From an uncultured Spirochaetota bacterium (GTDB lineage: Bacteria > Spirochaetota > B62-G9 > DRHN01): 40,788 bases of DNA. The position numbers and the translations under genes are program-made. Shown piece by piece: positions 4,405-40,731 of this stretch. The stretch spans positions 3,646 to 44,433 of the forward strand of contig CAYFYU010000019.1 in assembly GCA_964347455.1 (NCBI GenBank), read 5' to 3'. How positions within the stretch are numbered: position 1 is the first letter of the stretch; every line of letters starts with the position of its first letter. Below the pieces are notes generated by a model. It was not told where the DNA came from, made no database searches, and saw only the letters and a program-made list of their open reading frames with translations.

Positions 4405-5322
4405 TTAAGCGCCTACGGCCTCTCTTAAGGCGAGTATATTTTCCGGAGGGGTATTATTGAAAAAGGTGCAACCCGGCGCAAGGATAATCCCCCTGCCATT
4501 GACTTCCTCAATGGCCTCTCTTCCTTGTTTTACTATTTCCGCGGGTGAACATTTTACAGCGGCATAATGATCGATACCACCAACAATACATTTATCTGTC
4601 TTTTCTCGTGCCTCTCCTATGGATGGTCCAGCCACCCGATCCTCCCAGCTGATTGCATCGCAGTTGTAATCTTTCAACAGATTAAAGTGAGTATCCTTTT
4701 CACCATGGATATGGAGGATGAGAATTGGGGCATGTCGTAGAGTCTTTAGGATGTGTTTATCCGTCGGTGTTACCATCTCCTTGTACTGTGCCTCATCCAT
4801 CCAGGAGTTTTCACAGCCGAATGCAGCAAAGAAGAAGCCATCTATTCCTGCCTCCTGTATGCACATATCTGCAAAGCGTATGTAGTTTGCTGCAATTGTA
4901 TTCAAACCATTCATTACTGCCTCCCGGTCTTCTTTCAAGTCTTGTAGTATTCTTTGATGAGCAAGCCGGTGACCCACATGAAATGCTGAGAAAATTGTTT
5001 GAATGACCGGTACATCCTTGCCAACAGCATCCTTTATTCGTTTTAAAGCCTCCAACTGCCTCCCGAATGCTCCAATATGGGAATCGAACTCCTCCAAGAG
5101 GTTCCAGACTCTGATTTCAGTAATGAATTCAAAGGGAACTGGCGTGTCGTAGTTTTCGTCATACATTACCTTTACATAATCGGGATCATATCTTTTAAAG
5201 AAATTAAGGGTGAATTGAACAAATTTTTCTATAGTCCGTTCATGCACCGTACTATGCATATATGCGGAGAATGGTGGTCTATCGGTTTCCTGCTTTTTTA
5301 AGGTTGCCAATATTCTTTGCAT
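4405..5322 (-). CDS. Uroporphyrinogen-decarboxylase (URO-D) family protein
   Basis: Start trimmed to ATG at 5322 (MQRILATLKKQETDRPPF). The longer track start would overlap the upstream gene. Length and general sequence pattern fit the URO-D/MtaA-like fold. No H-x-C Zn motif was seen, so the function is open. Confidence 0.65.
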   Translation of the reverse strand: MQRILATLKKQETDRPPFSAYMHSTVHERTIEKFVQFTLNFFKRYDPDYVKVMYDENYDTPVPFEFITEIRVWNLLEEFDSHIGAFGRQLEALKRIKDAVGKDVPVIQTIFSAFHVGHRLAHQRILQDLKEDREAVMNGLNTIAANYIRFADMCIQEAGIDGFFFAAFGCENSWMDEAQYKEMVTPTDKHILKTLRHAPILILHIHGEKDTHFNLLKDYNCDAISWEDRVAGPSIGEAREKTDKCIVGGIDHYAAVKCSPAEIVKQGREAIEEVNGRGIILAPGCTFFNNTPPENILALREAVGA

Positions 5323-5362
5323 CTTCGTCACGGTTCTGAAATACCATACTTTCCGATGCGCA

Positions 5363-6349
5363 TTATCTGCGCACAATAATTTTTAAAACCGGCCAGTCGT
5401 TGTTACCGTCGTAATGAATCGGGTCTTCCTCCTGTTGAACATTTCCGTGTATATCAGTTGCCCTGGAGTTTATCCGATACGTACCTGTTTTATCGAACCG
5501 AAGGGTTGTATTCCAGAAAACCCATACGTAATCTACATCGATTTTTTGTACAATGTCCGCTTCTCTCCAGGTCAGTCCCTGATCTGTGGTAACCTCCACC
5601 TTAGTGATTCGGGTGCCGCCGAATGCAGCACCCATGATTTCGATTCTCCGTTTTGCCTTTATTGTTGTGGTTCTTTTAGGGGTAAAGATGACATTGTCAG
5701 CAGCCATAGGAGGTGAACAGTCCCAACCGCGTACCTCCCAGTAGTCCTTGATCGGAGAATCGATAACCTCCATCTCAGTAACCCATTGGGGTTGTTTCAC
5801 ACCATAGAATCCTGGATTCAGTATTCTGATAGGAAAACCATGTTCAGCCGGCAGCACCTCGCCGTTCATATAGAGCGCTCCGATTACGTTGTTGTTCTTT
5901 ATCTGATCCATTGTGTGAGAGGCAAAGTACCCATCCGCTGCCCTGTATACTACACCTTTGGCTTTTTCACTCAGACCCAGTGCGGTTAAAAAATCATAGA
6001 GCTTGAAACCCTCCCAAATAGCGGTGGAAAGCAACTGGCCATCGGGACTATTGCCTATACATTCCATAGTAAGCGGTAGCTCCACTCTTGGGAGTGCACG
6101 AAGCTCCTCAATCGTGAAACTTCGGGAATTTTTGACAAGCCCTTTGACTTCGAGACGGTACTCATTGGCATCGATTTTCGGAACTTTACCGATTCTGGTA
6201 ATAAAATAATCCTCATTTTTTGTGAAGAAGTCGGGGAATTCACTCCCTAAAACAAGTGCAGGCGATAAAAGCGTCAACGGAGCAGCTAAAGCAATAGCTG
6301 AAGCTGCTGTGGTTTTTCCTAGGTTTTTCAGAAATTCCCTGCGCTTCAT
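5363..6349 (-). CDS. Sulfite-oxidase-family molybdopterin oxidoreductase with TAT signal
   Basis: Start trimmed to ATG at 6349, giving MKRREFLKNLGKTTAASAIALAAP, a twin-arginine signal. The TMECIGNS segment matches the Mo-ligand Cys context (C.GN) of the sulfite oxidase family. A C-terminal beta-rich part is consistent with the Mo-co dimerisation domain. Confidence 0.8.
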   Translation of the reverse strand: MKRREFLKNLGKTTAASAIALAAPLTLLSPALVLGSEFPDFFTKNEDYFITRIGKVPKIDANEYRLEVKGLVKNSRSFTIEELRALPRVELPLTMECIGNSPDGQLLSTAIWEGFKLYDFLTALGLSEKAKGVVYRAADGYFASHTMDQIKNNNVIGALYMNGEVLPAEHGFPIRILNPGFYGVKQPQWVTEMEVIDSPIKDYWEVRGWDCSPPMAADNVIFTPKRTTTIKAKRRIEIMGAAFGGTRITKVEVTTDQGLTWREADIVQKIDVDYVWVFWNTTLRFDKTGTYRINSRATDIHGNVQQEEDPIHYDGNNDWPVLKIIVRR

Positions 6350-6491
6350 GGAATTGTCTTTCTCTATAAAATTTTGCAGTTCAAATAGTGTTTCAAAATT
6401 AGGTTTACCACTGAACATATACATTCTCCCTACTTATTGAAAAATTATATAAAGACTATCAACCTCTGATCTAAGTTTTGCTATTCTTTGT

Positions 6492-6586
6492 ACCTTCCAT
6501 GATGTTTTTTTTCAAGCTCTTTTTGACCTTCCCATGAATTACGTTATGGAACGGTTGCTTCAAGCAACTGAATCTTTATGGAATCG
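6492..6586. repeat. Four copies of a ~11-nt motif in head-to-head arrangement in the divergent control region
   Basis: ACCTTCCATGA (6492-6502) and ACCTTCCCATGA (6526-6537) are followed by the near-reverse-complement TTATGGAACGGT (6544-6555) and TTATGGAATCG (6576-6586). The core is TTCC(C)AT / ATGGAA. Confidence 0.35.
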
Positions 6587-6604
6587 AGAATTAAATGTTT
6601 TCTA

Positions 6605-6633
6605 TTGACTTTTCGTTAAAATAATTCTACTAA
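6605..6633 (+). promoter_or_regulatory. Putative sigma70-type promoter of the arsR-rhodanese gene
   Basis: TTGACT (6605-6610), a 17-nt spacer, then TACTAA (6628-6633). The -10 element overlaps the left arm of the 6624-6659 palindrome. Confidence 0.35.
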
Positions 6634-6659
6634 TCAACTAATAATTAGATTAGTAGAAT
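6624..6659. promoter_or_regulatory. Perfect 12-bp inverted repeat, putative ArsR-type operator
   Basis: ATTCTACTAATC (6624-6635), a 12-nt spacer, then GATTAGTAGAAT (6648-6659). The arms are exact reverse complements. It lies 17 nt upstream of the arsR-rhodanese ATG and overlaps the predicted -10. Confidence 0.5.
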
Positions 6660-6675
6660 AATGTAGGGGATTTTT

Positions 6676-7338
6676 ATGAGGGGAAGAGAATATAAGGATA
6701 CGGTATTTCAACTTTTTGCTATGATTGCACAGGGATTTTGCAGTCCGAAGCGTCTTGAGATCATTGATGTGCTAATACAGGGTGAGCGCGATGTTGAAAC
6801 ACTGTCGAAAGAAGTAAACATGAAAATAGCAAATACTTCAAAACATCTTCAGATATTAAAAAACGTGAGAATAGTGGAGAGCCGCAAGGATGGCGTAAAA
6901 GTATTGTATAGAATTGCGGATGATTCGGTTTTTACCTGTTATAAACATCTCCAGGCGCTCACTGAAAATAGGTTGTATGAACTCAAGGAGATAGTTCGAA
7001 TGTATTATCAGGATCGGGATAAACTTGAGACTATCACAAGAAAAAGTCTGTTGAGCCGCATTAAAAATGGAGATGTTCTCGTGCTCGATGTCAGGCCATT
7101 CGAAGAGTATAAAAGTGGCCATATCACCGAGGCACTTTCATTTCCCCTTTCAGAATTAAGAAGCCGTATTGCTGAGATTCCTAAAAATATGGATGTTGTT
7201 GCGTACTGTCGGGGTCCTTACTGCATCCTAGCGGCAGATGCAGTTACCTTTTTGAGGAAAGCGGGTGTTAAAGCAATTCGGATGAAGGATGGTTTTCCTG
7301 AATGGAAAGATGCTGGACTACCTGTTGAGATTGGTTAG
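6676..7338 (+). CDS. ArsR/SmtB-family transcriptional regulator fused to a rhodanese domain
   Basis: 220 aa; ATG preceded by TAGGGGA. The N-terminal wHTH reads RLEIIDVL...ETLSKEVNMKIANTSKHLQILKNVRIVESRKDG. The C-terminal rhodanese reads LVLDVRPFEEYKSGHI...VVAYCRGPYC, an active-site loop. Confidence 0.85.
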   Translation: MRGREYKDTVFQLFAMIAQGFCSPKRLEIIDVLIQGERDVETLSKEVNMKIANTSKHLQILKNVRIVESRKDGVKVLYRIADDSVFTCYKHLQALTENRLYELKEIVRMYYQDRDKLETITRKSLLSRIKNGDVLVLDVRPFEEYKSGHITEALSFPLSELRSRIAEIPKNMDVVAYCRGPYCILAADAVTFLRKAGVKAIRMKDGFPEWKDAGLPVEIG

Positions 7339-7371
7339 GAAACACCAATTTATAATTTGATCAGGTGCTAT

Positions 7372-7400
7372 TTGGAGGGGGTGATAGTAATGCTTATAAT
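7372..7400 (+). promoter_or_regulatory. Putative internal promoter ahead of the cysteine desulfurase gene
   Basis: TTGGAG (7372-7377), a 17-nt spacer, then consensus TATAAT (7395-7400), 36 nt upstream of the ATG at 7437. Confidence 0.3.
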
Positions 7401-7436
7401 CTTGCCATTTTTACCTTTTTATAGGGGAAGAATTTT

Positions 7437-8585
7437 ATGAAAACACCAATTTATATAGATTATAATGCAACTACTCCCCATGACCCTGAAGTAATTGCTG
7501 AAATGAAACCTTTTTTGACCGACTATTTTGGCAATCCTTCCAGCTCATATCTGTACGGTGTGCAAACAAAAAAAGCAGTAGCGAACGCACGTCAGCAGAT
7601 TTCTTCATTATTACATTGTGATCCTTCAGAGATACTCTTTACCAGTGGTGGGACAGAATCGAACAATTATGCTATCAAAGGGACCGCTTTTCATAATAAA
7701 CACAAGGGAAACCATATTATAACCACACAGATAGAACACCCATCAGTTTTAGAAGTATGCAAATTCCTAGAAATGAATGGATTCCGAATTTCCTATCTCC
7801 CGGTAGACGAATTCGGAATCGTTCGTATAGCTGATGTTGAGAACGCAATTACCTTAAAAACGATCTTAATCACGGTGATGCATGCCAATAATGAAGTGGG
7901 ATCGATTCAGCCCATTAGGGAAATTTCCAACCTTGCAAGAAAGAGAAAGGTACTTGTTCATACCGATGCTGCTCAGTCTATTGGGAAGATCCCAACTACT
8001 GTACAGCAGCTCGGTGTCGATCTGTTGTCGATTGCAGGTCACAAGGTGTATGCTCCAAAGGGTATTGGCGTTCTTTATGTGCGGCGAGGGGTTCAACTTA
8101 CATCTATCATTCACGGTGCCGGGCAGGAGAAAGGTATGAGACCTGGAACAGAAAACGTGTTGGAAATTGTTGGGCTTGGTAAGGCTTGTGAGATAGCGCA
8201 AAGGGATTTACAAAAGAACATGCTGCACATGAAAAAAATGCGGGAAAGATTATTTGTCGGTATAAAATCGAAAATCAAAAATGTAAAACGTAATGGACAT
8301 CCTGATAAACAACTTCCCAATACTCTAAGTGTAAGCTTCAAGGATCTGAATGCACATACAATTCTCTCAGAAATTCAGGATCGGGTGGCAGTCTCAGCAG
8401 GAGCTGCATGCCATTCAGACCTGTTTGAAATTTCCCATGTTCTCAGGGCAATAAACCTACCAGAAGAATGGGCGCATGGAACACTCCGCTTTTCGACTGG
8501 GAAAATGAGTACCGAGGAAGAGATGATGTATGCCTCAGAAATAATCTCTGAAGCCGTTGTTAAACTTTTAATTAAAAAAACCTGA
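7437..8585 (+). CDS. Cysteine desulfurase, NifS/IscS class V aminotransferase family
   Basis: 382 aa with RBS AGGGGAAG. It has IYIDYNATTP, FTSGGTESNN, HANNEVG, the PLP-lysine context SIAGHKVYAPKGIG and the catalytic-Cys loop SAGAACHS. Confidence 0.9.
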   Translation: MKTPIYIDYNATTPHDPEVIAEMKPFLTDYFGNPSSSYLYGVQTKKAVANARQQISSLLHCDPSEILFTSGGTESNNYAIKGTAFHNKHKGNHIITTQIEHPSVLEVCKFLEMNGFRISYLPVDEFGIVRIADVENAITLKTILITVMHANNEVGSIQPIREISNLARKRKVLVHTDAAQSIGKIPTTVQQLGVDLLSIAGHKVYAPKGIGVLYVRRGVQLTSIIHGAGQEKGMRPGTENVLEIVGLGKACEIAQRDLQKNMLHMKKMRERLFVGIKSKIKNVKRNGHPDKQLPNTLSVSFKDLNAHTILSEIQDRVAVSAGAACHSDLFEISHVLRAINLPEEWAHGTLRFSTGKMSTEEEMMYASEIISEAVVKLLIKKT

Positions 8586-18593: not shown

Positions 18594-19469
18594 ATGGACA
18601 AAGAGTATACGCTTAGGCATCCTATCGTAAGTGGTCTATTCTATCCCGACCGGAGAGACGAGTTGAAAGGGGTCATTGAAAATAATCTAAAAAAAATAGA
18701 CAAGGGCCAGCTCTTCCATTCAATTGCTGAGCAGACGAATCTGAAAAGCCCTGAAAAGGAAAAGCCTCTTGTGATTATCGTTCCCCACGCCGGTTTTATC
18801 TTTTCAGGTTCCCTTCAGGCACATTCGTACGTACTCTTAGATTCATTTAAAATCGATACGGTTATAATCATTGGACCTGCCCATCAGGCGAGTTTCAAGG
18901 GAATATCCATTAACCTGGATAATGCATACCAGACGCCACTTGGAGATGTGAACGTCGATCTCGAATTCTCAGGTAGACTCATACAATATGATAGGGTATT
19001 TCAACATCACGAGGATGCTCATCTCGGTGAACATTCCATTGAGGTGCAGCTTCCCTATGTACAGCAAATTCAACCGGACGCAAAGATAGTTCCAATTCTG
19101 TTTGGAGAACAGAGCTGGGACTACTCTTTGTTATTAAAGAATGCACTAGTTTCACTATTGAGAGATAAACGTAAGAGTTATATTATTGTCGCAAGCACAG
19201 ACCTCTCTCACTATCATTCACACGTTGATGCTCAAACAATGGATAATATGATAATCGAGGACATCCGTAAACTGGATCCTGACCTTTTTTATAGTCATAT
19301 ACATGATGGCCAGGCTGAGGCATGCGGATGGGGAGGTATTTTAACCGGATTGCTCCTGGTCAAGGAGATCGGGAAGGGGGAATCGGCCATACTTCGATAC
19401 ATGGATTCAGGTGATGTTTCTGGTGACCGGAGAAAGGTAGTCGGCTATCTTTCAGCAGTACTGTACTAG
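18594..19469 (+). CDS. AmmeMemoRadiSam system protein B (Memo-like)
   Basis: 291 aa. RHPIVSGLFYP, VPHAGFIFSG, IIGPAH and STDLSHYH are typical of Memo-family proteins. Confidence 0.85.
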   Translation: MDKEYTLRHPIVSGLFYPDRRDELKGVIENNLKKIDKGQLFHSIAEQTNLKSPEKEKPLVIIVPHAGFIFSGSLQAHSYVLLDSFKIDTVIIIGPAHQASFKGISINLDNAYQTPLGDVNVDLEFSGRLIQYDRVFQHHEDAHLGEHSIEVQLPYVQQIQPDAKIVPILFGEQSWDYSLLLKNALVSLLRDKRKSYIIVASTDLSHYHSHVDAQTMDNMIIEDIRKLDPDLFYSHIHDGQAEACGWGGILTGLLLVKEIGKGESAILRYMDSGDVSGDRRKVVGYLSAVLY

Positions 19470-19554
19470 AGGTCGTCAGATCTTTGCGAACCCTTCTAAA
19501 TATCTTCTCAGATATCGAATAGGCTGTATCATTTCGAGTATAAAGAGGGGAATA

Positions 19555-20103
19555 ATGCTCAACGAAGAAGAGAGAGTTTCACTGCTGAAATTAGCCAGAA
19601 ATACGATAAACGCAAAGCTACATAAGCAACCAGAGCCTGATTTTAAACCCTTAAGCAATGTGCTCGAGCAGCCCTGCGGTGCATTTGTAACCCTTCACAA
19701 AAAGGGTGCGCTGAGAGGATGTATAGGCCTCGTACAGGCTGTAAAACCACTCTACCAAACAGTGCGGGAGATGGCTGTAGCATCTGCTTTCGATGATCCA
19801 CGTTTTCCACCACTGAGAAAGGAGGAATTTGACGACATCGAACTAGAGATATCGGTCATGTCACCTCCAAGACGCATAACCGATGTAAATGAGATAGAGG
19901 TTGGAAGACATGGTATTATTATTAAGCGAGGATATCATCAGGGTCTGTTATTACCTCAAGTGGCAACAGAGCAGGGCTGGGATAGGGATACTTTTATCGA
20001 ACATACCTGTTATAAGGCAGGTCTGAACAATGACAGCTGGAAACAGGATGGCACTGAGATTCAAATTTTTTCAGCAGAGGTATTTTCAGAGAAAGAGTTG
20101 TAG
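19555..20103 (+). CDS. AmmeMemoRadiSam system protein A (AMMECR1 domain)
   Basis: 182 aa. CGAFVTLHKKGALRGCIG, FDDPRFPPL, GRHGIII and LLPQVA are AMMECR1 hallmarks. Confidence 0.85.
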   Translation: MLNEEERVSLLKLARNTINAKLHKQPEPDFKPLSNVLEQPCGAFVTLHKKGALRGCIGLVQAVKPLYQTVREMAVASAFDDPRFPPLRKEEFDDIELEISVMSPPRRITDVNEIEVGRHGIIIKRGYHQGLLLPQVATEQGWDRDTFIEHTCYKAGLNNDSWKQDGTEIQIFSAEVFSEKEL

Positions 20104-27008: not shown

Positions 27009-28136
27009 ATGAAGGGACTCTATTACTTTGTAAAAAAGATATACCAGCTTTCGCAGTCAAAACCGATATTTAACAGGCTGGGAGGAAAAATATTCACATA
27101 CTGGGAGTTTCCGGTTACATATGTCTACCATTTTCTCCGATATGGTCCGTTCAGAGCGGGTATTCTGGGTAAAGATTTGAAGAGGCTCGATCATAGAGCC
27201 AAGGGGCTAATCCTATGCCATAGCGCAGGAGGCAGGGTACCACCAGGAATGAACTATAAAAGGGTGTTTGTCTACCATGGTACTTGCGATACCATTTATA
27301 AAGCTGATGGTCCGGATAACAAACTTTTATCTGAATGGTTTGAATACTACTTCGTGACTGGAGCCAAGGACCTCGACAAACTTAAACGGTATACATACGA
27401 TCCAGAAAATCTTGACGCTAAGATAGTCAAGATAGGGATGTTCAGATCGGATCCTATTTTTAACAATACTTATAACAGGTATGCAATACTACGAAAGTAT
27501 GGGATTAAATCGAATGGAAAAAAGATAATTCTATACGCTCCGACTTGGGCTTGGGGAGCGGGAACTCTGAAAGAGTGTTTTGAACATTTTATGAGTAGGA
27601 TTCCCGAGAAGTACGTATTCATCATTCGTCCACATTACAATGATAGAAAAAACATTCGTCATATTTTCCAGTGGCAAAAAAAGCATAGGTTGAATGATTT
27701 CTATTTTTTTCCAAAGCAGCATCAGGATGTTATGGACCTAATTTATATCTCAGATCTGCTCATAGGTGACAACTCATCAGTCAACTATGACTTTTCACTC
27801 ACACAAAAACCCATAGTACTGGTCAAATCAGAGGAACATGAGAACCTGTTCATACCACCAGATGAATATAATATAAAATTGTGCTGCCCCGTGTATGATC
27901 CGAATGGAAATAATGATATACTCGACAAGATTGAAGAGGCATTTTCGAACCAGACCTATCGGGAACGTCTCGATAGTCTTGTCAAGAGTAGTTTTTACTA
28001 CAATGACGGTCATGCAATTGACAGAGCGTCCAGCTTTATCGTCGATACCCTCAGCGAAATGAACATCATTGATCGGACGAAAACGCTGAAAAAATATGAA
28101 AAGGTCTTTCAGTATAACGATGGATATAAGTTGTAA
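27009..28136 (+). CDS. TagB/TagF-type glycerophosphotransferase-family protein, subfamily A (A2)
   Basis: 375 aa. By my count, 36 of the first 61 residues are identical to A1. It has VYHGTCD, ILYAPTWAWGAG, IIRPHYN and SDLLIGDNSSVNYDFSLTQKPIV. Confidence 0.8.
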   Translation: MKGLYYFVKKIYQLSQSKPIFNRLGGKIFTYWEFPVTYVYHFLRYGPFRAGILGKDLKRLDHRAKGLILCHSAGGRVPPGMNYKRVFVYHGTCDTIYKADGPDNKLLSEWFEYYFVTGAKDLDKLKRYTYDPENLDAKIVKIGMFRSDPIFNNTYNRYAILRKYGIKSNGKKIILYAPTWAWGAGTLKECFEHFMSRIPEKYVFIIRPHYNDRKNIRHIFQWQKKHRLNDFYFFPKQHQDVMDLIYISDLLIGDNSSVNYDFSLTQKPIVLVKSEEHENLFIPPDEYNIKLCCPVYDPNGNNDILDKIEEAFSNQTYRERLDSLVKSSFYYNDGHAIDRASSFIVDTLSEMNIIDRTKTLKKYEKVFQYNDGYKL

Positions 28137-28138
28137 TG

Positions 28139-29263
28139 CTATGTAATGAGGATGTTACATGAAGTTAAGTAATCTTTCAGCACTTCGAGGAATCGGTAGA
28201 TATCATCCTTGTCAATTGCTCCAATGTTTGCTATACGGAACGTGTTCTTCTTTGCCCCCTTGCCTGGATAGATGGTAAAGCCTCTTTTCAAGAGATAATC
28301 ATGCATTTCGTTGAAATCATACCGATCATCTTCTGGTTCAATAACTGCCGTGAGAAGTCCTGATTGAAATTTTCGGGGTACGAGGAAATCGAAATTCAGA
28401 TCTTCAAGCCCTCTCACCAATGTTTTCCATGATTCACGGTAGCGTTTAAAGCGGTGTTCTCCCGTTTCTTCGAAAAATTCGTCGAGTGCTTGATTCAAGG
28501 CATAGGCTGTTTGAACTGGCGGTGTAAATTGCATTTGTTTCTTTTCTTCAAAATATCTGTACTGTTGCCAGAGATTGAAATAGTAGTTTCGCGGTTCGAT
28601 GTGCCTGGTTTTTTGTAGATTCTCCTTTTTACAAATTACAAAGCTGATACCGGCCATCCCCTGTATGCATTTATTGGCAGATGATGTTATGTAATCATAG
28701 TCATCTTCTCGTAGGTCAATGGGAATTCCTGCATATGAAGATATTGTATCGATAACTACCTCAGCCCCGTGCTGGTGCGCGATTTTGTTTATCTCTTGTA
28801 CTGGATTAAGCATACCGGTCGTGGTCTCATGGTGTACTGCTGCGACTACACCCACAGCTCGCTCATTATCGATTATCCTTTCTATTTCACTCATATCGGG
28901 GTAGTCACCCCACGGAATCTGATACTTGATTATTCTGTCCAGTTCATAGAAACGTTCTGCGATATCGATCATCCTTCTTCCATAGGCACCGTTATCGATG
29001 ATGAGGATCTTTTTTCCATCCGGTAAAATAGAGCTGATACAGGCTTCAACGACACCTGTTCCAGACGCGGCAAAGGGAATTGCAGTATACTGACCGTTAC
29101 CATGAACAACTCTAACAAGTTTTGTTCTGATAACATCCATTAAATGGCCGAACTCTTTTTCACGCGGGCAGATGTCGGGGACTACCTGTGCATATTTAAC
29201 AGAATCTGTTGTTGTTGCAGGACCAGGATTCAAAAGGATATTTCTTTTCACAGCCTTAATCAT
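28139..29263 (-). CDS. phnW: 2-aminoethylphosphonate:pyruvate aminotransferase
   Basis: 374 aa. LLNPGPATTT at the N-terminus and the PLP-lysine block SSANKCIQGMAGISF match PhnW/AepZ. It is the last gene of the pepM-ppd operon. Confidence 0.8.
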   Translation of the reverse strand: MIKAVKRNILLNPGPATTTDSVKYAQVVPDICPREKEFGHLMDVIRTKLVRVVHGNGQYTAIPFAASGTGVVEACISSILPDGKKILIIDNGAYGRRMIDIAERFYELDRIIKYQIPWGDYPDMSEIERIIDNERAVGVVAAVHHETTTGMLNPVQEINKIAHQHGAEVVIDTISSYAGIPIDLREDDYDYITSSANKCIQGMAGISFVICKKENLQKTRHIEPRNYYFNLWQQYRYFEEKKQMQFTPPVQTAYALNQALDEFFEETGEHRFKRYRESWKTLVRGLEDLNFDFLVPRKFQSGLLTAVIEPEDDRYDFNEMHDYLLKRGFTIYPGKGAKKNTFRIANIGAIDKDDIYRFLEVLKDYLTSCNILIT

Positions 29264-29993
29264 TTTTACTCTCTCTTATTTTTGGATAAATAATATTCGT
29301 GGCCCTTTGCAGGTGGTCGAGATTATCGATCTCTACCCACAGGAGATCATCGATCTTTTTAATCGCAATGGGGATTTTCTTGGCAATACAGCTGAAAACA
29401 TATTCGTAATCTCGTTTGAATGCAGCTTGACTATTTATCTGTGCCCATTTACAGAGCTCCTTGAAAGCGTACAATGATATTTTTGAGATGCCCACAAGCT
29501 CTCCGTAGCTATTCTTTAAATCCTGTTCATTTTTCGACATATTCACAAGATTTCTATGTTTATCAACCTCTATATAAAACTCATCGCCCGAATTCGTCCA
29601 GCCACTTGCAAGTATTATGTTCTCTCTTTCATCATTTTTGATGAGAGAAATGGCTCTCTCTTCAAACAACAGATCTGACTCCAGCAATAGAAAGTCCTCG
29701 TGGATATGATCCCGCATATTGTAGAGCGTATAGAAACTCCCTGATAGTTCGTACTCGCCGTTCTTTACGCATCGAACCTGGTTGTACTTTTTTTCTAGCA
29801 ATTCGTAGAATTTCGATTCGTACCCTGTTCCTATTAGGATCTTTTCAATACTGTTGGATATGAGGATTTGAATGGATCTTTCTATGATAGATTTATCCCC
29901 GATGGATATGAACCCTTTCGGTTTCAGGTCAAAATGATCTTTTAATCTGCTTCCTACACCGGCCGCCATGAATACCGCTGTGCTCACATTCAT
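29256..29993 (-). CDS. LicC/PntC-like nucleotidyltransferase (candidate AEP or phosphoalcohol cytidylyltransferase)
   Basis: 245 aa with a canonical AAGVGSRL...KPK N-terminal loop and C-terminal WVEIDNLDHL. It sits between ppd and phnW, overlapping phnW by 8 nt. Confidence 0.7.
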   Translation of the reverse strand: MNVSTAVFMAAGVGSRLKDHFDLKPKGFISIGDKSIIERSIQILISNSIEKILIGTGYESKFYELLEKKYNQVRCVKNGEYELSGSFYTLYNMRDHIHEDFLLLESDLLFEERAISLIKNDERENIILASGWTNSGDEFYIEVDKHRNLVNMSKNEQDLKNSYGELVGISKISLYAFKELCKWAQINSQAAFKRDYEYVFSCIAKKIPIAIKKIDDLLWVEIDNLDHLQRATNIIYPKIRESKND

Positions 29994-30049
29994 CCCACTG
30001 CCTTTATTTTTGATGAATCAACGCATTTATTTGGATTCCTCAACCAAGC

Positions 30050-31180
30050 TCACCCCTTCAATAGAGCCATAAATCTTTTTTTTACCTCATGGGGTAGAAT
30101 CGTCGGTCTACCAAGATTTTTTTTCGAACCCTTTCTAATCTCCACATGCATGAAAGTGAGGACTGGCTTTTGTTTCCATTGCTCGATTAAGCTTCCAATT
30201 TCCTCTACATTGTTGATCAATATGGATTTTTCATACCCTGATGCCCTGGCAATCGCTGTGAAATGTATATTTCCCGATACTGTGTTCTGCCCGCCGGTTG
30301 AGTCATGAGATTTATTGTCAAGCAGAATGTGGAGCAGGTTTTTTGGCCTGTAAAATCCGTTTGTGGCCAGAGAGCCTGTCCTCATGAGGAGGGCTCCATC
30401 GCCATCGAGGACGATTACCCGTTTTTCAGGCCTTGCAAGACAGATCCCAAGCCCAATTGAGCTCGCACACCCCATAGAACCGATCATATACAGGTTGTGG
30501 GCCGAATCATCTATTTCGAAAAGTTCTCTACCGCATTTTCCCGTTGAAGCCAGAAGCATAGTTTCATCGTCTTTATATCGTGATACCTTTTCAAGAACCT
30601 GAAGACGGGTCGGTTTGTGTTCACAGGTTGTTCTCTGGATAATCTCTTTATGGTAGCTGGTTATCTTTATTTCTCTCTGCAGGGGTTCGTGGGAAAATGT
30701 GTCCTTTTTAATAATAAAGAAAAATGGTTTATTGTTGTTGAAGTATTCGAGTGCATCATCCAGCTGACTTTCTGCTTCAGCAATATCTGTCGACAGTATT
30801 GCATTTGGCACTTTGCAGAGCTTCATTAGGGATTCAGTTATCTCCCCCATTAGCCAGTGCTCCGGCTCGTCCTTTATCCCCGGCTCACCTCTCCAGCCAA
30901 CAAACCCGAGTACTGGAATCTGAAAGGGATTGTTTAGTGAGGTAAGCGGGTTTAATGCGTTGGTCAATCCGGAATTCTGCATAAGCACATAAGATTTTTT
31001 TCCTGCCAGATATGCGCCAGAAGAAATTGCGACAGCCTCGCCTTCATTTGTCGCTATTACATAGAGTAAATTATTGATTGAGTAATTAATAAAATCTTTC
31101 AATAATGAGCAGGGAACGCCCGAAGCGAAGCTGAATCCTCTTTCTTGCAGTAGAGCGCCGAATACGTGCGTGTCTAACAC
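30050..31180 (-). CDS. ppd: Phosphonopyruvate decarboxylase (ThDP-dependent)
   Basis: 376 aa. The N-terminus GFSFASGVPCSLLKDFINY and the ThDP-binding region VLDGDGALLM...NKSHDSTGGQ are present. The GTG start overlaps the pepM TAG by 1 nt (TAGTG). Confidence 0.85.
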   Translation of the reverse strand: MLDTHVFGALLQERGFSFASGVPCSLLKDFINYSINNLLYVIATNEGEAVAISSGAYLAGKKSYVLMQNSGLTNALNPLTSLNNPFQIPVLGFVGWRGEPGIKDEPEHWLMGEITESLMKLCKVPNAILSTDIAEAESQLDDALEYFNNNKPFFFIIKKDTFSHEPLQREIKITSYHKEIIQRTTCEHKPTRLQVLEKVSRYKDDETMLLASTGKCGRELFEIDDSAHNLYMIGSMGCASSIGLGICLARPEKRVIVLDGDGALLMRTGSLATNGFYRPKNLLHILLDNKSHDSTGGQNTVSGNIHFTAIARASGYEKSILINNVEEIGSLIEQWKQKPVLTFMHVEIRKGSKKNLGRPTILPHEVKKRFMALLKG

Positions 31181-32781
31181 TAGAAGCCCCCCGCTTCGGT
31201 GTAATCGGCGATGTCATCGATATCTAGCCATCCGCCCAGTGTATAGACAACGGCTATTTGTGTCTTTTCGATCAATGGTTTCAGAAGATCAGGAATCGAT
31301 AGTTGCTTGAAGTTCGCTCTACGCGATAATTTCTCAAGGGTCAGCTTTAATAGTGCCGTTCCTCGGGATTCTGCAGCCAGAAGGCCCGCCCATTCTCCAT
31401 CGGCGGAGCCGTGACTTTCACTATCAAGAACACTGGTAAGGTAGATGTTTTCATTGAAAAAGTCATTCGCATAGGGTCTCGAACACTGTACGAGGTCCTG
31501 AGGTTTTGATTTTCGCTTTAGATCTGCATCCACTACTATCTTTATCTCTCCGTCCTTGTCGAGCAAATCGGTGATCAGATGTTTTTTATACAAACAGTCG
31601 CCATAGGAGATGATACAGTCACCCTCAAGACATTTTCTGGCTACATACAGAGAGTAGAGGTCCTTTGTGGACTTGTAGTTGTCATTGTCGATCGTCTTAA
31701 AATTCGGTCCAGAGATTATCTCCTTTTTGTAGCCTCTAACGACGGTAATATCTTTTATCTCCATGCCATTCAGAATATCGATGAATGATGTTAGAACAGG
31801 TTGTTTATTTATTTCGAGCATCGCCTTTGGCCGCTCTCTGGTTATTTCAGATAGCTCTTTACCTCTACTTGCTGCGAGAATGATTGAGCTATACTTCTTA
31901 CCCTGGGTGCCGAGGTATCTCCTTTCTGCTCTTTGCAATTCTTCAGATCCCTGTAGCCTGAAAATTTCTGAAACTGAGGCAATTTGGTCCTCGATGTTCA
32001 TGAGGGTTTCTGAGGAATGGATTTGTTTTGCTATTTCCTCCATGAACCTTATCGAAGCTCTCATAAGATGATTAGCCCAGATAATGAGGCTGATTCCCAG
32101 TTCCCTGAATCGATTGGTTGGTGTTGAGTAGTATTTCGTGGGGACGATGACAACGGGATGCCTGTTTCCCCATTCCTTCATAAAAGCCTCGATATCAGAA
32201 GGATTGTTCTTTTTGCTATGAACGAGGATGGCATCGGCTCCTGCCTTTCTGTAAGCTTCGGCTCTCGTAAGAGCTTCCTTTAAACCCCAGCCTGCAATGA
32301 ACGCCTCAACACGTGCAATAATTGAAAAATTATCGTCCCTCTGTATATCTTTTCCTGCCTTTATTTTTCCGGAAAATTCATCAATATCAGCCAATGGCTG
32401 TTTTTCACTATCAATAAATGAATTTGTTTTGGGAAAGAGTTTATCTTCGATACATACCCCGGCTATACCTCGCTGTTCCAGCTTCATAACCAGTCTTCGC
32501 ATGTTATTGAAATTCCCATATCCGGTATCGCCATCCAGTAGAATCGGTATACTGGTAACATCACTCATGAATTCTAGAACTTCCAATATCTGTGTCCATG
32601 AAGCTTCGTTACTATCTCGCACTCCCATTGATGCGGAAAGGGTCAAACCACTTGCCCATATTCCATTAAAACCAGCCTCTTCCACTATCTTGGCACTGAC
32701 ACCGTTGTGGGCCTCGCAGATAAACTCAAGCTGCGGAGAGTAGAGCATTTTTCTGAGTTTTGCAGTTTTTTTCATATTCAT
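31180..32781 (-). CDS. pepM: Phosphoenolpyruvate mutase fused to a C-terminal nucleotidyltransferase-like domain
   Basis: 533 aa. Residues 1-~290 form an ICL/PEP-mutase fold with the diagnostic [10 protein letters not shown] (EDKxxxxxNS; 32419-32448). Residues ~296-533 form a LicC-like fold ending in [12 protein letters not shown], but with an atypical N-terminal loop, AASRGKEL. Confidence 0.85.
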
Positions 32782-36603: not shown

Positions 36604-37641
36604 TTACAACAGGTTTAATATAGCCTCTTTAGCCCGGCTTGCTGCATAACCGTCGGGTTTATAAAAGGTTTTTTGAAGATGAGAGATAATCCGATCCATA
36701 TATTCTTCTGGGTTCTTGAGTGTTTGCAAAATCGCCACCCAGAGCCTGTCAGGATTAGTAACGACTTTTCCACATTCCCATAGTGTCGTTTTTTGTTTAC
36801 TCCAGAACCATTTCGGCTTATTACTCAGAAAAATAAACGGTCTCTTAAATGCGAGATATTCCCTCGTTACTGCTGAAACATCGCTTAACAGTACATCGGA
36901 GGCCGCCATAACGGGGACAATGTCCGGTGATTTGTCGATTAAGAGAGTATCTTTATGTGGTTGGAGCTGCTTCCGCATCTCCTCAACCTCATTTTTTCTG
37001 TATCGTATCAGATTCGGATGCAATTTCACAATAAGATTGATATTGTCGGGCTTGTCCGTTATGAGTGTGCTATGAAATTTCTTCCAAGACGAATTAGACG
37101 CCCGGTCCACCCAGGTTGGCGCATAGAGAACGGTTTTCTTATTTGGGTTCATCCTCAGTTTGGCCAGTTCATCGTTTCTTGAGAGTTCGCCTCTGAACAC
37201 CCTGTCAAGCTTGGGATAACCGATTATTACTCCATTGTTTTTTTTCAACAAACCTTTCTTTCTATATCTTTCAAGAGCATGTTCTCCGGGTATGAAAAAT
37301 AGGTCGTATTCAAGAACGTCCCTCCTGTAATCGTATACCTTATCGGATGTGCCATGAAAAACCTGTACGTGCCTAACACCCTCAAGGTCCTTGAAATGTC
37401 TAATGTGATAGTCAGGATATATGATGACCCTCACCCCTGAAGTTTTCATTTGATTTCTAATGTCAGCTATTGTTTTGTAATATACAAATTTCAAGTTTGG
37501 ATGATACTTGTTGAGATTATTAAATGTCAAAGCAGAGTCTGTGTATATAGTTCCACCTGTCTCAGAGGCAATGCAGGATATACTGGGAATTTCCTGGATT
37601 GAATAATCTATGTAATAGGCGATTTTATTTTGGATGTTCAT
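36604..37641 (-). CDS. TagB/TagF-type glycerophosphotransferase-family protein, subfamily C (C3)
   Basis: I chose ATG 37641 by alignment to C1/C2 N-termini; alternatives are 37656 and 37662. It has VQVFHGTSDK, LYAPTWVD, VKLHPN and SDVLLSDVSAVTREYLAFKRPFIFL. Confidence 0.8.
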   Translation of the reverse strand: MNIQNKIAYYIDYSIQEIPSISCIASETGGTIYTDSALTFNNLNKYHPNLKFVYYKTIADIRNQMKTSGVRVIIYPDYHIRHFKDLEGVRHVQVFHGTSDKVYDYRRDVLEYDLFFIPGEHALERYRKKGLLKKNNGVIIGYPKLDRVFRGELSRNDELAKLRMNPNKKTVLYAPTWVDRASNSSWKKFHSTLITDKPDNINLIVKLHPNLIRYRKNEVEEMRKQLQPHKDTLLIDKSPDIVPVMAASDVLLSDVSAVTREYLAFKRPFIFLSNKPKWFWSKQKTTLWECGKVVTNPDRLWVAILQTLKNPEEYMDRIISHLQKTFYKPDGYAASRAKEAILNLL

Positions 37642-38386
37642 ACATGGATTGTTCATAGGCAATAATTGCGGGGTAGACGAGCTCTTCCGCCTTTTTTAAA
37701 TCTTCCGGAAAATCGATCTCTATATTTGGAATTTGAGAAACATCGAGTGGATAAAATGGAGCCTCGTCGAGGATGTCCTCTACTGCCTTCTCAAAAAAGA
37801 GGTTTTTATCACCTCTTTTGATGTAATAGTTAAGAGCATCGATAAAGTGGCCCGTTATTTCCTTGCCGAATTTGGCAACACCGATAAACTCACCCTTAGC
37901 TTCATCAAGTGTAATATCTTTACCGAGCTTTATTATACGGTTATCTGAATTGCTTGTGAACTTGACCTCCTCATCACCGCAGGTAATATGGTTGACGGCA
38001 AGTACATTTTGACCTTTATGCTGGATGAGAAATTTGACAATGTCGCTATGCATAAATACATCGGCGTTAAAATATATGAAATCCTGATCTCTGAACTCGT
38101 TGCGGGTAAGAAAGAGGGAGTATATTGTGTTGGTCGTATTAAATTCAGGGTTTTCAACATAGGTTATCTTGACCTTATCCCTATAGAGAGGTCCGATAAA
38201 ATCACGGATCTTTTTTTTCAAATAACCGATTACAATTATGGCCTTTGCGATTCCAACCGCGAGCACCGCATCAAGCTGATGCTCAAGGATGGTTTTTCCA
38301 CCTATTCGAAGGAGGCATTTGGGTACGTCTTTTGTAAGAGGCATAAGCCTTCGAGATGCACCTGCTGCAAGTAATATCGCTTTCAT
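37625..38386 (-). CDS. LicC/IspD-like nucleotidyltransferase (candidate CDP-alcohol-forming cytidylyltransferase)
   Basis: Start trimmed to ATG 38386 (MKAILLAAGASRRL...VPKCLL). The C-terminal IEIDFPEDL block matches the other two LicC-like domains in the island. Confidence 0.75.
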   Translation of the reverse strand: MKAILLAAGASRRLMPLTKDVPKCLLRIGGKTILEHQLDAVLAVGIAKAIIVIGYLKKKIRDFIGPLYRDKVKITYVENPEFNTTNTIYSLFLTRNEFRDQDFIYFNADVFMHSDIVKFLIQHKGQNVLAVNHITCGDEEVKFTSNSDNRIIKLGKDITLDEAKGEFIGVAKFGKEITGHFIDALNYYIKRGDKNLFFEKAVEDILDEAPFYPLDVSQIPNIEIDFPEDLKKAEELVYPAIIAYEQSMYEHPK

Positions 38387-38432: not shown

Positions 38433-39377
38433 TTAAGAATGCTCCTCGGGAGGACCAAGAATTGCAGGATTAACCGGAGGAGCCATCTTTTCAAAAGGAA
38501 GGTCCTTATATGTGTCTTCCAATAACCGATCATACTCTTCTGATGGTATCTTTAACTCAAGATATCCAGCATAGAATTCTCCCTTATTTTTTGCACTGTA
38601 CGTTGCATCCTCGAAAGACATTCCGTATGGTGGCTTTCCATTCTTGAATGTTCTCAGCCGTAAATGTTTAAACCTCATATTTTTAAGGAGCGCTTTTCCC
38701 AGGTGAATAACATAGCCATCTAGAAAAAAGTCAAAATTACACGTTTTATATCCCTTTTTAAATATCGATTTTGTAAAATATAAATGGGCCCATCCCTTAT
38801 TAGAGAAATAGCTCAGATCATGTTTTTTCCATGCATCCATCCTGACGAGCATACAGCAGGCGTTGGTATAGCCATAGTGGAAAGGTTTCTTTCGTGTATA
38901 ATCGGTGATAAATTCCGGATCACTGCGTTCTTTATCCCCAATAACTTTGATACCTCTCACACCCCCTACTACTTGGCCAACAGACATAACCAATGGGTCC
39001 AAATCGAAACAGGGAAGGGAGTTTTTCAGAACATCATCCCGTAGTATTATACAATCCGAATCCAAGATAAAAACATAATCAGCAGTTACATATTTCAGAC
39101 CAATAGTGAGCGACTCACCATGTCCCTTGCTTTTAAGAAAAGATATAGGTATACCTGTCTTATATGAGGGGAGTGGCATTCCATTTCGTACGAGTGTGAT
39201 CGATCCCCTTTCATGTAAATATCTGGTATATTCTCTCAGTAATTTTTCCGGGGAATGATCATCAACGACGATAATTTGCCCAATTTCTTCATCAGGAATA
39301 TGCGATCGTATCGACTCATATAACTGTCTGAAGAGTAAGTACTGGTTTCTCACAGGTATCAGTATATCCACAGGCAT
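38433..39377 (-). CDS. Glycosyltransferase family 2 protein
   Basis: 314 aa; first gene of the 11-gene minus-strand operon. It has VDILIPVRNQ, IVVDDHSPE and ILDSDCI (DxD). Confidence 0.75.
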   Translation of the reverse strand: MPVDILIPVRNQYLLFRQLYESIRSHIPDEEIGQIIVVDDHSPEKLLREYTRYLHERGSITLVRNGMPLPSYKTGIPISFLKSKGHGESLTIGLKYVTADYVFILDSDCIILRDDVLKNSLPCFDLDPLVMSVGQVVGGVRGIKVIGDKERSDPEFITDYTRKKPFHYGYTNACCMLVRMDAWKKHDLSYFSNKGWAHLYFTKSIFKKGYKTCNFDFFLDGYVIHLGKALLKNMRFKHLRLRTFKNGKPPYGMSFEDATYSAKNKGEFYAGYLELKIPSEEYDRLLEDTYKDLPFEKMAPPVNPAILGPPEEHS

Positions 39378-39759: not shown

Positions 39760-40731
39760 ATGATGAATATAGTCATCGTCGGTGCTGGTTCGTTCGGAAC
39801 CTCATTAGGCAACATCATTGCTAAAAAGAGAGATCTCAAGGTTACGGTTCTCGCACGAAGCAGTGCGGTTGTACGCTCGATCAATGATTTTCATATCAAC
39901 AACAAATACTTTCCCAACTTTTATCTGGATCCTAGTTTAGTAGCATCAAATAATAAGAAGCTATTAACAAAGGCTGACATCATTTTTCTAGCGCTACCAT
40001 CAACTCAGGTTTTAAATTATGTTGTTAAGAATAAAAATATTTTTTGCGAAAACGCTGAAGTTGTCGTTTTATCAAAAGGATTTGGAAAAGGAGACAAGAC
40101 CATTGTCCAGAGTGTTGGTGCATTGATTGAAAACCAGCTCGTTTCTTTCAAGGGACCTACCTTTGCGGCAGATCTTATTCATAATAACCCTACCGGGTTT
40201 ACCGTTGCTTGTAAGGATCAATCGTTGTTCGACCTTTTTCAAAAAATTTTTCAGGACACAAACATCTATCTTGATTTTTCCACAGACGTCTTAGGGGTTG
40301 AAATTACCAGTGCACTTAAAAACATCTATGCAATCCTCCTCGGTATCATCGACGCCTATTTCAATTCTGCTAATACGAGGTTTCTGATTCTGACGAAGGC
40401 CTTCAATGAATTGAAGAATGCCGTTACTGTTCTCGGGGGCTCAGAGGATACTCTATACAAATTCTGCGGGTTTGGTGATTTTGGACTTACCGCACTAAAT
40501 GATCTGAGCAGGAATCGAACTTTGGGGCTGTTAATGGGAAAGGGATTTCTTGATAATAATATTTCAAACAGCGTTATTTTAGAGGGAAAACGAACGCTGA
40601 ATATTACATACAATGCTGTTCGAACCCGCGGGGATTTTTATTTGATGGGGGAGCTTCATACATTATTCAACAGCAATTATAAAGTGCATGAGTTTATCAG
40701 CAATGTATTTCAAAAGATAAGGGAGGATTAA
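39760..40731 (+). CDS. gpsA: NAD(P)H-dependent glycerol-3-phosphate dehydrogenase
   Basis: 323 aa with RBS GAAGAGGA. It has IVIVGAGSFGTSLG, NNKYFPNFYL, KGPTFAADL, LKNIYAILLGI and LSRNRTLGLLMGKG. It matches the GpsA pattern but diverges from the canonical motifs. Confidence 0.85.
   Translation: MMNIVIVGAGSFGTSLGNIIAKKRDLKVTVLARSSAVVRSINDFHINNKYFPNFYLDPSLVASNNKKLLTKADIIFLALPSTQVLNYVVKNKNIFCENAEVVVLSKGFGKGDKTIVQSVGALIENQLVSFKGPTFAADLIHNNPTGFTVACKDQSLFDLFQKIFQDTNIYLDFSTDVLGVEITSALKNIYAILLGIIDAYFNSANTRFLILTKAFNELKNAVTVLGGSEDTLYKFCGFGDFGLTALNDLSRNRTLGLLMGKGFLDNNISNSVILEGKRTLNITYNAVRTRGDFYLMGELHTLFNSNYKVHEFISNVFQKIRED

Follow-up and report, generated by a model that had tools for sequence, protein, structure and literature searches.

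A stretch of 40,788 nt from an uncultured Spirochaetota bacterium (GenBank assembly GCA_964347455.1, contig CAYFYU010000019.1, positions 3,646 to 44,433; hereafter the window) carries, on its minus strand between positions 28139 and 32781, four genes that are predicted to form a portable phosphonyl tailoring (Pnt) cassette. According to this reading, to which we assign a probability of roughly 85% on the sequence evidence, cytidine monophosphate (CMP)-activated 2-aminoethylphosphonate (CMP-AEP) would be made by a stand-alone phosphonate cytidylyltransferase, PntC. The second nucleotidyltransferase of the cassette, a PF12804 domain (fNT) fused to the phosphoenolpyruvate (PEP) mutase PepM, would be a distinct unit and not a spare. 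An initial annotation of this DNA had treated the two units as equivalent LicC-like enzymes. This equivalence did not hold: the stand-alone enzyme is of the type found in Treponema denticola (Tde), and fNT belongs to a separate conserved clade.

The stand-alone gene (29256-29993, minus strand) encodes a protein of 245 aa that scored 29.9 bits against the Pfam cut-off of 27 for PF12804. Comparison with the PntC domain of T. denticola Tde1415 (PDB 6pd1) gave an E-value of 5.6e-64 and a gap-free alignment over residues 4-242 (239 residues). Tde-PntC and Ari-PntC have been reported to form CMP-AEP with a Michaelis constant (KM) of 12-16 μM; in Tde-PntC, R15 stabilises pyrophosphate, E104 and E196 contact the AEP amine, and the R15A, K25A and K153A variants display less than 10% activity (PMC6697681). 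All five of these functional residues, R15, K25, E104, K153 and E196, are kept in the window protein, as R16, K26, E105, K154 and E197. The signature GxG(T/S)Rx4-8PK is present as G12-V-G-S-R16, followed by eight residues and P25-K26, and the loop reads AAGVGSRL. The stand-alone enzyme is thus a predicted orthologue of Tde-PntC that would make CMP-AEP. The transaminase fusion described for Tde1415 was found in 32 of 38 PntC homologues from other genomes, the other 6 being encoded on their own as proteins of 239-249 aa. In the window, the stand-alone PntC and the transaminase PhnW represent the bifunctional Tde1415 PntC-AEP transaminase (PntC-AEPT) in split form, with translational coupling. 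A frameshift origin of the separate genes was considered and rejected as unnecessary, given the 6 separate homologues and the same overlapping open reading frames (ORFs) in another genome of the genus, L002.

The fused domain gave a different picture. It occupies residues 293-533 of a 533-aa PepM fusion (domain at 31180-31905, whole ORF at 31180-32781, minus strand) and scored 27.3 bits against the same Pfam cut-off. Its best sequence match among solved structures was LicC (PDB 1jyk; E 5.8e-11, over the N-terminal half), and Tde-PntC was matched with an E-value of only 0.013. The AlphaFold model had a mean predicted local distance difference test score (pLDDT) of 92.4, and its top Foldseek matches were 6pd2 and 1jyl, with template modelling (TM) scores of about 0.76-0.81. 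The fold of LicC and PntC is retained in the domain, as are the catalytic lysine, the aspartates that bind metal and two motifs common to both enzymes, (F/L)Y(S/T)LY and the Asn of (V/I)xN. Streptococcus pneumoniae LicC, a CTP:phosphocholine cytidylyltransferase (1JYK/1JYL), shares the PK lysine and (F/L)Y(S/T)LY with fNT. The two differ in that LicC is not part of a fusion, belongs to the choline pathway and has a canonical AAGLGTRL loop, whereas the loop of fNT reads AASRGKEL (31852-31875) in place of the family consensus GxG(T/S)R.

This unusual loop was found throughout the family. Aligned across 110 PepM fusions, it takes the form L-A-A-S-R-G-x-E-L, with the S in 97%, the R in 86% and the G in 100% of the sequences; where the canonical arginine would be expected, 68% have Glu. 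Several other residues are invariant (K319, G394-D395, G462, G466 and W518, 100%) or nearly so (E463, 99%; D520 and D522, 91-92%). A profile-profile alignment of fNT with Tde-PntC (probability 99.4%) placed E309 at Tde R15 and Y393, which is Tyr in 96% of the fusions, at E104; the fNT residues at Tde K153 and E196 were variable, the alignment being of modest reliability around E196. Equivalents of the GxG(T/S)R arginine, of the AEP-amine ligands (E104 and E196) and of K153 are therefore missing, and by its sequence fNT is not a PntC. Decay of the domain in this particular genome was considered as an explanation and rejected, since an AASRG-type signature shared by 110 fusions is a trait of the clade and not a sign of decay. 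Between the window and L002, fNT is as conserved as the enzymes around it (64% identity, compared with 64% for the decarboxylase Ppd, 60% for PntC and 64% for PhnW). Its conservation pattern indicates that fNT is a functional module of another kind, neither a decayed copy nor a PntC.

The distribution of the two units was examined in 80 loci selected by PepM similarity, one genome being used per species. Among the loci with enough flanking sequence, both units were found in 36, neither in 31, fNT only in 5 and PntC only in 1; the loci are dominated by Bacillaceae and Paenibacillaceae and are not independent, so that the figures serve as plain counts, not as a statistical test. The arrangement PepM-fNT, Ppd, PntC, PhnW was seen in at least five phyla, in Spirochaetota-like genomes, Desulfobacteraceae, Methylobacter, many Bacillota and Oligoflexia. 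Two of the five loci with fNT only, from Bacteroidota (L058, 9596-14937) and Marinamargulisbacteria (L017, 6970-9912), are of a hydroxyethylphosphonate type: PepM-fNT and Ppd are accompanied by a different canonical nucleotidyltransferase, 59% identical between these two phyla, and an Fe-alcohol dehydrogenase replaces the transaminase. The second unit thus changes with the enzyme making the final phosphonate, and fNT does not. A domain without the AEP-amine residues that is also unchanged in loci with another head group has a role that is not tied to that group, and we conclude that the function of fNT is independent of the phosphonate head group. The Bacteroidota locus additionally encodes a 428-aa CDP-alcohol phosphotransferase.

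In a search of 1.8 billion representative sequences, AASRG-type domains were almost always PepM fusions or fragments of such fusions. One 611-aa protein, P0280, carried by a single 2.5-kb metagenome contig, has an AASRG-type domain fused to an AEP transaminase, with a canonical PntC-like gene next to it. The two kinds of unit are therefore retained jointly in three different architectures, an argument against simple redundancy. In another protein, P0255 (1004 aa), a PepM-AASRG fusion is preceded on its N-terminal side by a weak AMP-binding (adenylation-like) region, giving a three-part architecture that is unreported. The presence of two nucleotidyltransferases, which the initial annotation had left unexplained, is not peculiar to this locus and corresponds to a common published layout (PMC6697681, PMC8942020).

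Several observations weigh against our reading of the cassette, beyond the uneven sampling noted above. In three Bacteroidales loci (L009, L012 and L015), fNT is the sole nucleotidyltransferase within 8 kb, which would fit an active CMP-phosphonate synthase. Around PepM-fNT of L015 (8001-9596), no Ppd, transaminase or second nucleotidyltransferase was found in 8 kb on each side; at L009 (537-2120), the same three were likewise not found in 8 kb downstream and 536 nt upstream. The partner enzymes of these two loci are encoded elsewhere, or phosphonopyruvate is used by another route. The shifted arginine of the fNT loop, R306, could stand in for the missing one. A literature search retrieved no paper in which a PepM-fused PF12804 domain was assayed, although such papers may exist in subscription journals. 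Finally, the role of a neighbouring TagF-like protein as an AEP transferase, proposed below, is drawn from synteny in one genus and one unrelated case.

As for what fNT does, most likely it either controls PepM as a module that binds cytidine nucleotides or CMP-phosphonates, or acts as a cytidylyltransferase whose loop is rearranged and whose substrate differs. The enzyme alternative, which we place short of even odds, supposes that the substrate activated by fNT is a shared or early phosphonate (phosphonopyruvate, phosphonoacetaldehyde) or else a non-phosphonate component of the polymer or lipid acceptor, so that two donors would be made. The pocket of fNT, distinct yet strongly conserved, and the independence of the domain from the type of end product are both consistent with this. 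A precedent is provided by Fom1, cited in PMC6697681 as a PepM-fused cytidylyltransferase that acts on a later intermediate, and the authors of that paper expect PntC enzymes to activate varied phosphonates. An active enzyme is harder to reconcile with the Glu found in 68% of the fusions in place of the pyrophosphate-stabilising Arg15, the residue whose change to Ala left Tde-PntC with less than a tenth of its activity. The sequence names no candidate substrate, and nothing in the window calls for a second CMP-phosphonate.

The binding-module alternative, to which we would give a similar chance, likewise below one half, is that fNT is a non-catalytic paralogue sensing cytidine triphosphate (CTP) or CMP-phosphonate and tuning PepM, the first committed step. 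Regulatory inactive paralogues of sugar-nucleotide pyrophosphorylases, such as GMPPA, offer an analogy. The loss of the loop arginine would be accounted for, as would the retention of the (V/I)xN Asn, the (F/L)Y(S/T)LY motif, the lysine and the metal ligands. The fusion to the first committed enzyme, the presence of fNT essentially only alongside a catalytic nucleotidyltransferase and its indifference to the head group point in the same direction. This alternative is reached by inference, and it fits poorly with the Bacteroidales loci that have no second nucleotidyltransferase nearby and with P0280, where the AASRG-type unit is on the transaminase and not on PepM. Extended further, it would make fNT a conserved pseudo-nucleotidyltransferase that senses cytidine nucleotides or CMP-phosphonates and exerts feedback on PepM, with the linked proposal that TagF-family proteins are CMP-AEP-dependent phosphonyl transferases. 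We consider this combined proposal somewhat unlikely; a sensing role of fNT would explain why about one-third of PEP mutases carry the domain and why a separate catalytic PntC accompanies it irrespective of the head group.

It is distinctly less probable, in our estimation, that fNT is a second CMP-AEP synthase, a redundant or differently regulated isozyme in which the loop arginine has moved by three positions (R306). Its fold is the same as that of PntC and LicC, and the catalytic lysine and metal ligands are retained. Some Bacteroidales loci have fNT as the sole nucleotidyltransferase near PepM, and in P0280 the AASRG-type unit takes the position of PntC before the transaminase. Yet the P0280 fusion too is followed by a canonical PntC-like gene, and the two units are gained and lost jointly, with no mutual replacement (36 loci with both, 31 with neither). 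An isozyme would also have to function with a conserved Tyr in place of the AEP-amine ligand Glu104 and without conserved residues at K153 and E196, and to stay the same in loci of the hydroxyethylphosphonate type, whose final product lacks an amine. A role of fNT outside these three is improbable.

The remaining genes of the cassette were assigned with equivalog-level scores. PepM, residues 1-292 of the fusion (31906-32781, minus strand), reached 389.3 bits against the NCBIfam equivalog cut-off of 319.55 for TIGR02320. It also matched PF13714 (Pfam, E 2.9e-62) and the Mytilus PEP mutase (PDB 1m1b, E 4e-133). Scores for the sister families stayed under their cut-offs: prpB, 138 against 354 bits; Pphn hydrolase, 236 against 374; CPEP mutase, 91 against 420. 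The EDKxxxxxNS motif distinguishes PepM within the isocitrate-lyase superfamily (PMC6697681), and a motif of this type is present at residues 112-121 (32419-32448). The alternative that the protein is a methylisocitrate lyase was checked and is very unlikely, considering the prpB score and the match to the Mytilus enzyme. Ppd (Ppd/AepY phosphonopyruvate decarboxylase, 376 aa, GTG start, 30050-31180, minus strand) scored 409.4 bits against the cut-off of 312.5 for TIGR03297, with TPP_enzyme_N and TPP_enzyme_C domains and the thiamine-diphosphate motif GDGALLM...N. PhnW, a PhnW/AepZ-type AEP transaminase of 374 aa (28139-29263, minus strand), scored 422.4 bits against 360.8 for TIGR03301 (PhnW-AepZ) and 333 bits, under the cut-off of 400.8, for the catabolic-type model TIGR02326; its pyridoxal phosphate (PLP)-lysine motif SSANKCIQG is present.

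These scores, together with the match of the stand-alone enzyme to Tde-PntC, support the route from PepM through Ppd and PhnW to CMP-AEP that had been proposed for the cassette, the individual activities being assigned by family membership and orthology. PepM would turn PEP into phosphonopyruvate, which Ppd would decarboxylate to phosphonoacetaldehyde, pulling the unfavourable PepM reaction forward. The AepZ-type transaminase would then form AEP, and the Tde-PntC orthologue would join AEP and CTP to give CMP-AEP. The product may serve as the donor for decorating a teichoic acid-like surface polymer.

The gene organisation described in the initial annotation was largely borne out. The four ORFs match its coordinates exactly, and the motifs it quoted (the PepM motif, AAGVGSRL and SSANKCIQG) are all present. 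Direct reading confirmed that the PepM stop and the Ppd GTG start share one base (TAGTG) and that the PntC and PhnW genes overlap by 8 nt (ATGATTAA). The description of all four genes as tightly coupled is accurate for these two overlapping junctions but not for Ppd and PntC, which are separated by a spacer of 56 nt (29994-30049). A run of 11 genes on the minus strand begins at 39377 and has the cassette as its 3' end.

The genes of this run that are located upstream of the cassette encode a GT2, a third nucleotidyltransferase, two TagF-like proteins and a GT-C/GtrA/GT2 trio. Across the whole window there are seven TagF-like genes, along with genes for two CDP-alcohol phosphotransferases and for an ABC exporter, a combination that identifies a teichoic acid-like surface-polymer island. 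The TagF-like (Glyphos_transf) gene at 27009-28136 on the plus strand (TagF_5; PF04464, E 1.1e-24) is convergent to the cassette, its stop lying 2 nt from that of PhnW (28136-28139), and no terminator-like hairpin was found between the two stops. In L002 its counterpart is 67% identical and occupies the same convergent position, 6 nt from PhnW (12644/12651). In L008, an unrelated Bacillota genome, the cassette is immediately followed by a TagF-like gene. The other genes of the island were not conserved beside the cassette, either in the same-genus genome or in any other locus compared, and no specific partner of fNT can therefore be deduced from synteny. That CMP-AEP feeds transferases of the island, as first suggested, is plausible, and the suggestion can be sharpened to the TagF-like protein at 27009-28136. 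Encoded by the sole island gene that accompanies the cassette in a same-genus genome, it is the best candidate for a CMP-AEP-dependent transferase.

At other loci the immediate neighbours of the cassette are LicD (L004), Mur-ligase/ATP-grasp genes (Bacillaceae) or methyltransferases. In Neobacillus, Aeribacillus and Priestia (L014, L019 and L030, at about 5100-8000) it immediately follows ORFs of 465-476 aa; the ones scanned, from L014 and L030, were Mur-ligase-like, and Priestia also has an 873-aa COOH-NH2 ligase/ATP-grasp protein by the cassette. Such neighbours suggest that in these Bacillaceae the acceptor of AEP is peptide-like or related to peptidoglycan, rather than a teichoic acid.

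The third nucleotidyltransferase of the window (37625-38386, minus strand) is LicC/IspD-like, has the loop AAGASRRL and lies upstream of two TagF-like genes; its start is likely the methionine of MKAILL and not that of the 302-aa ORF. Divergent to it is a GpsA-like glycerol-3-phosphate dehydrogenase gene (39760-40731, plus strand). No TagD-type (PF01467) cytidylyltransferase was detected among the window ORFs of at least 120 aa scanned against Pfam, and the third nucleotidyltransferase may supply a CDP-polyol donor. Memo-like and AMMECR1 genes (18594-20103, plus strand) are located between TagF-like genes inside the polymer island, and no match to a radical SAM family was obtained among the window ORFs scanned against Pfam. 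URO-D-like genes and archaeal-looking NCBIfam matches are also present in the window.

The nearest named relatives of the MutL and PepM proteins of the window are from metagenome-assembled Spirochaetota genomes. On this basis an archaeal origin, initially suggested by the Memo, AMMECR1 and URO-D-like genes and the archaeal-looking NCBIfam matches, was rejected. Each of the three genomes of the host genus contains PepM, and 17 further genomes from the rest of the order, which vary in completeness, do not; this restriction to one genus points to a lineage-specific acquisition.

The closest described system is the Pnt cluster of T. denticola, which contains a PepM-fused nucleotidyltransferase and the Tde1415 PntC-AEPT (6PD1/6PD2); the presence of two units per cluster is pointed out in that paper (PMC6697681). 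Both hosts are Spirochaetota, and the set of PepM-PF12804, Ppd, Tde-type PntC and AEPT is the same. The window differs from T. denticola in that PntC and AEPT are encoded by two overlapping genes instead of one 624-aa protein, and in that the host is an environmental uncultured lineage with the cassette confined to one genus of its order. Published Pnt clusters have LicD-like neighbours, whereas those of the window are TagF-like transferases. Two PntCs, one of them fused to Ppm (PepM), are an often-observed layout of AEP clusters, for example in the CDP-OH group of Burkholderiales (Li and Horsman 2022, PMC8942020). The window shares with these families the Ppm, Ppd and AEPT core with one fused and one separate PF12804 unit. 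Unlike them, it has no 2-oxoglutarate oxygenase, and its phospholipid-type CDP-alcohol transferases lie 12 kb away, outside the core. Fom1 of Streptomyces wedmorensis, as cited in PMC6697681, is a PepM fused to a cytidylyltransferase that makes CMP-hydroxyethylphosphonate (CMP-HEP). It resembles the window protein in having a PepM-fused nucleotidyltransferase, and is a precedent for such a domain acting several steps downstream. It differs in that, going by the same citation, the domain is N-terminal and of the unrelated PF01467 fold, and the pathway yields an antibiotic instead of a surface decoration.

Collectively, these comparisons indicated that the cassette of the window is real but ordinary, its two-unit layout having been published before (Rice 2019, PMC6697681; Li and Horsman 2022, PMC8942020). 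To the well-described phosphonate clusters for surface tailoring, the locus contributes a case from an environmental Spirochaetota bacterium, and alone it changes little. Roughly a third of known PEP mutases carry a fused PF12804 domain (PMC6697681), and the job of fNT is a question for the whole family that is not special to the window. The comparison nominates TagF-like proteins as candidates for the step attaching AEP to polymers, and it frames a testable question, whether the fused domain has a regulatory role or catalyses a reaction on a new substrate.

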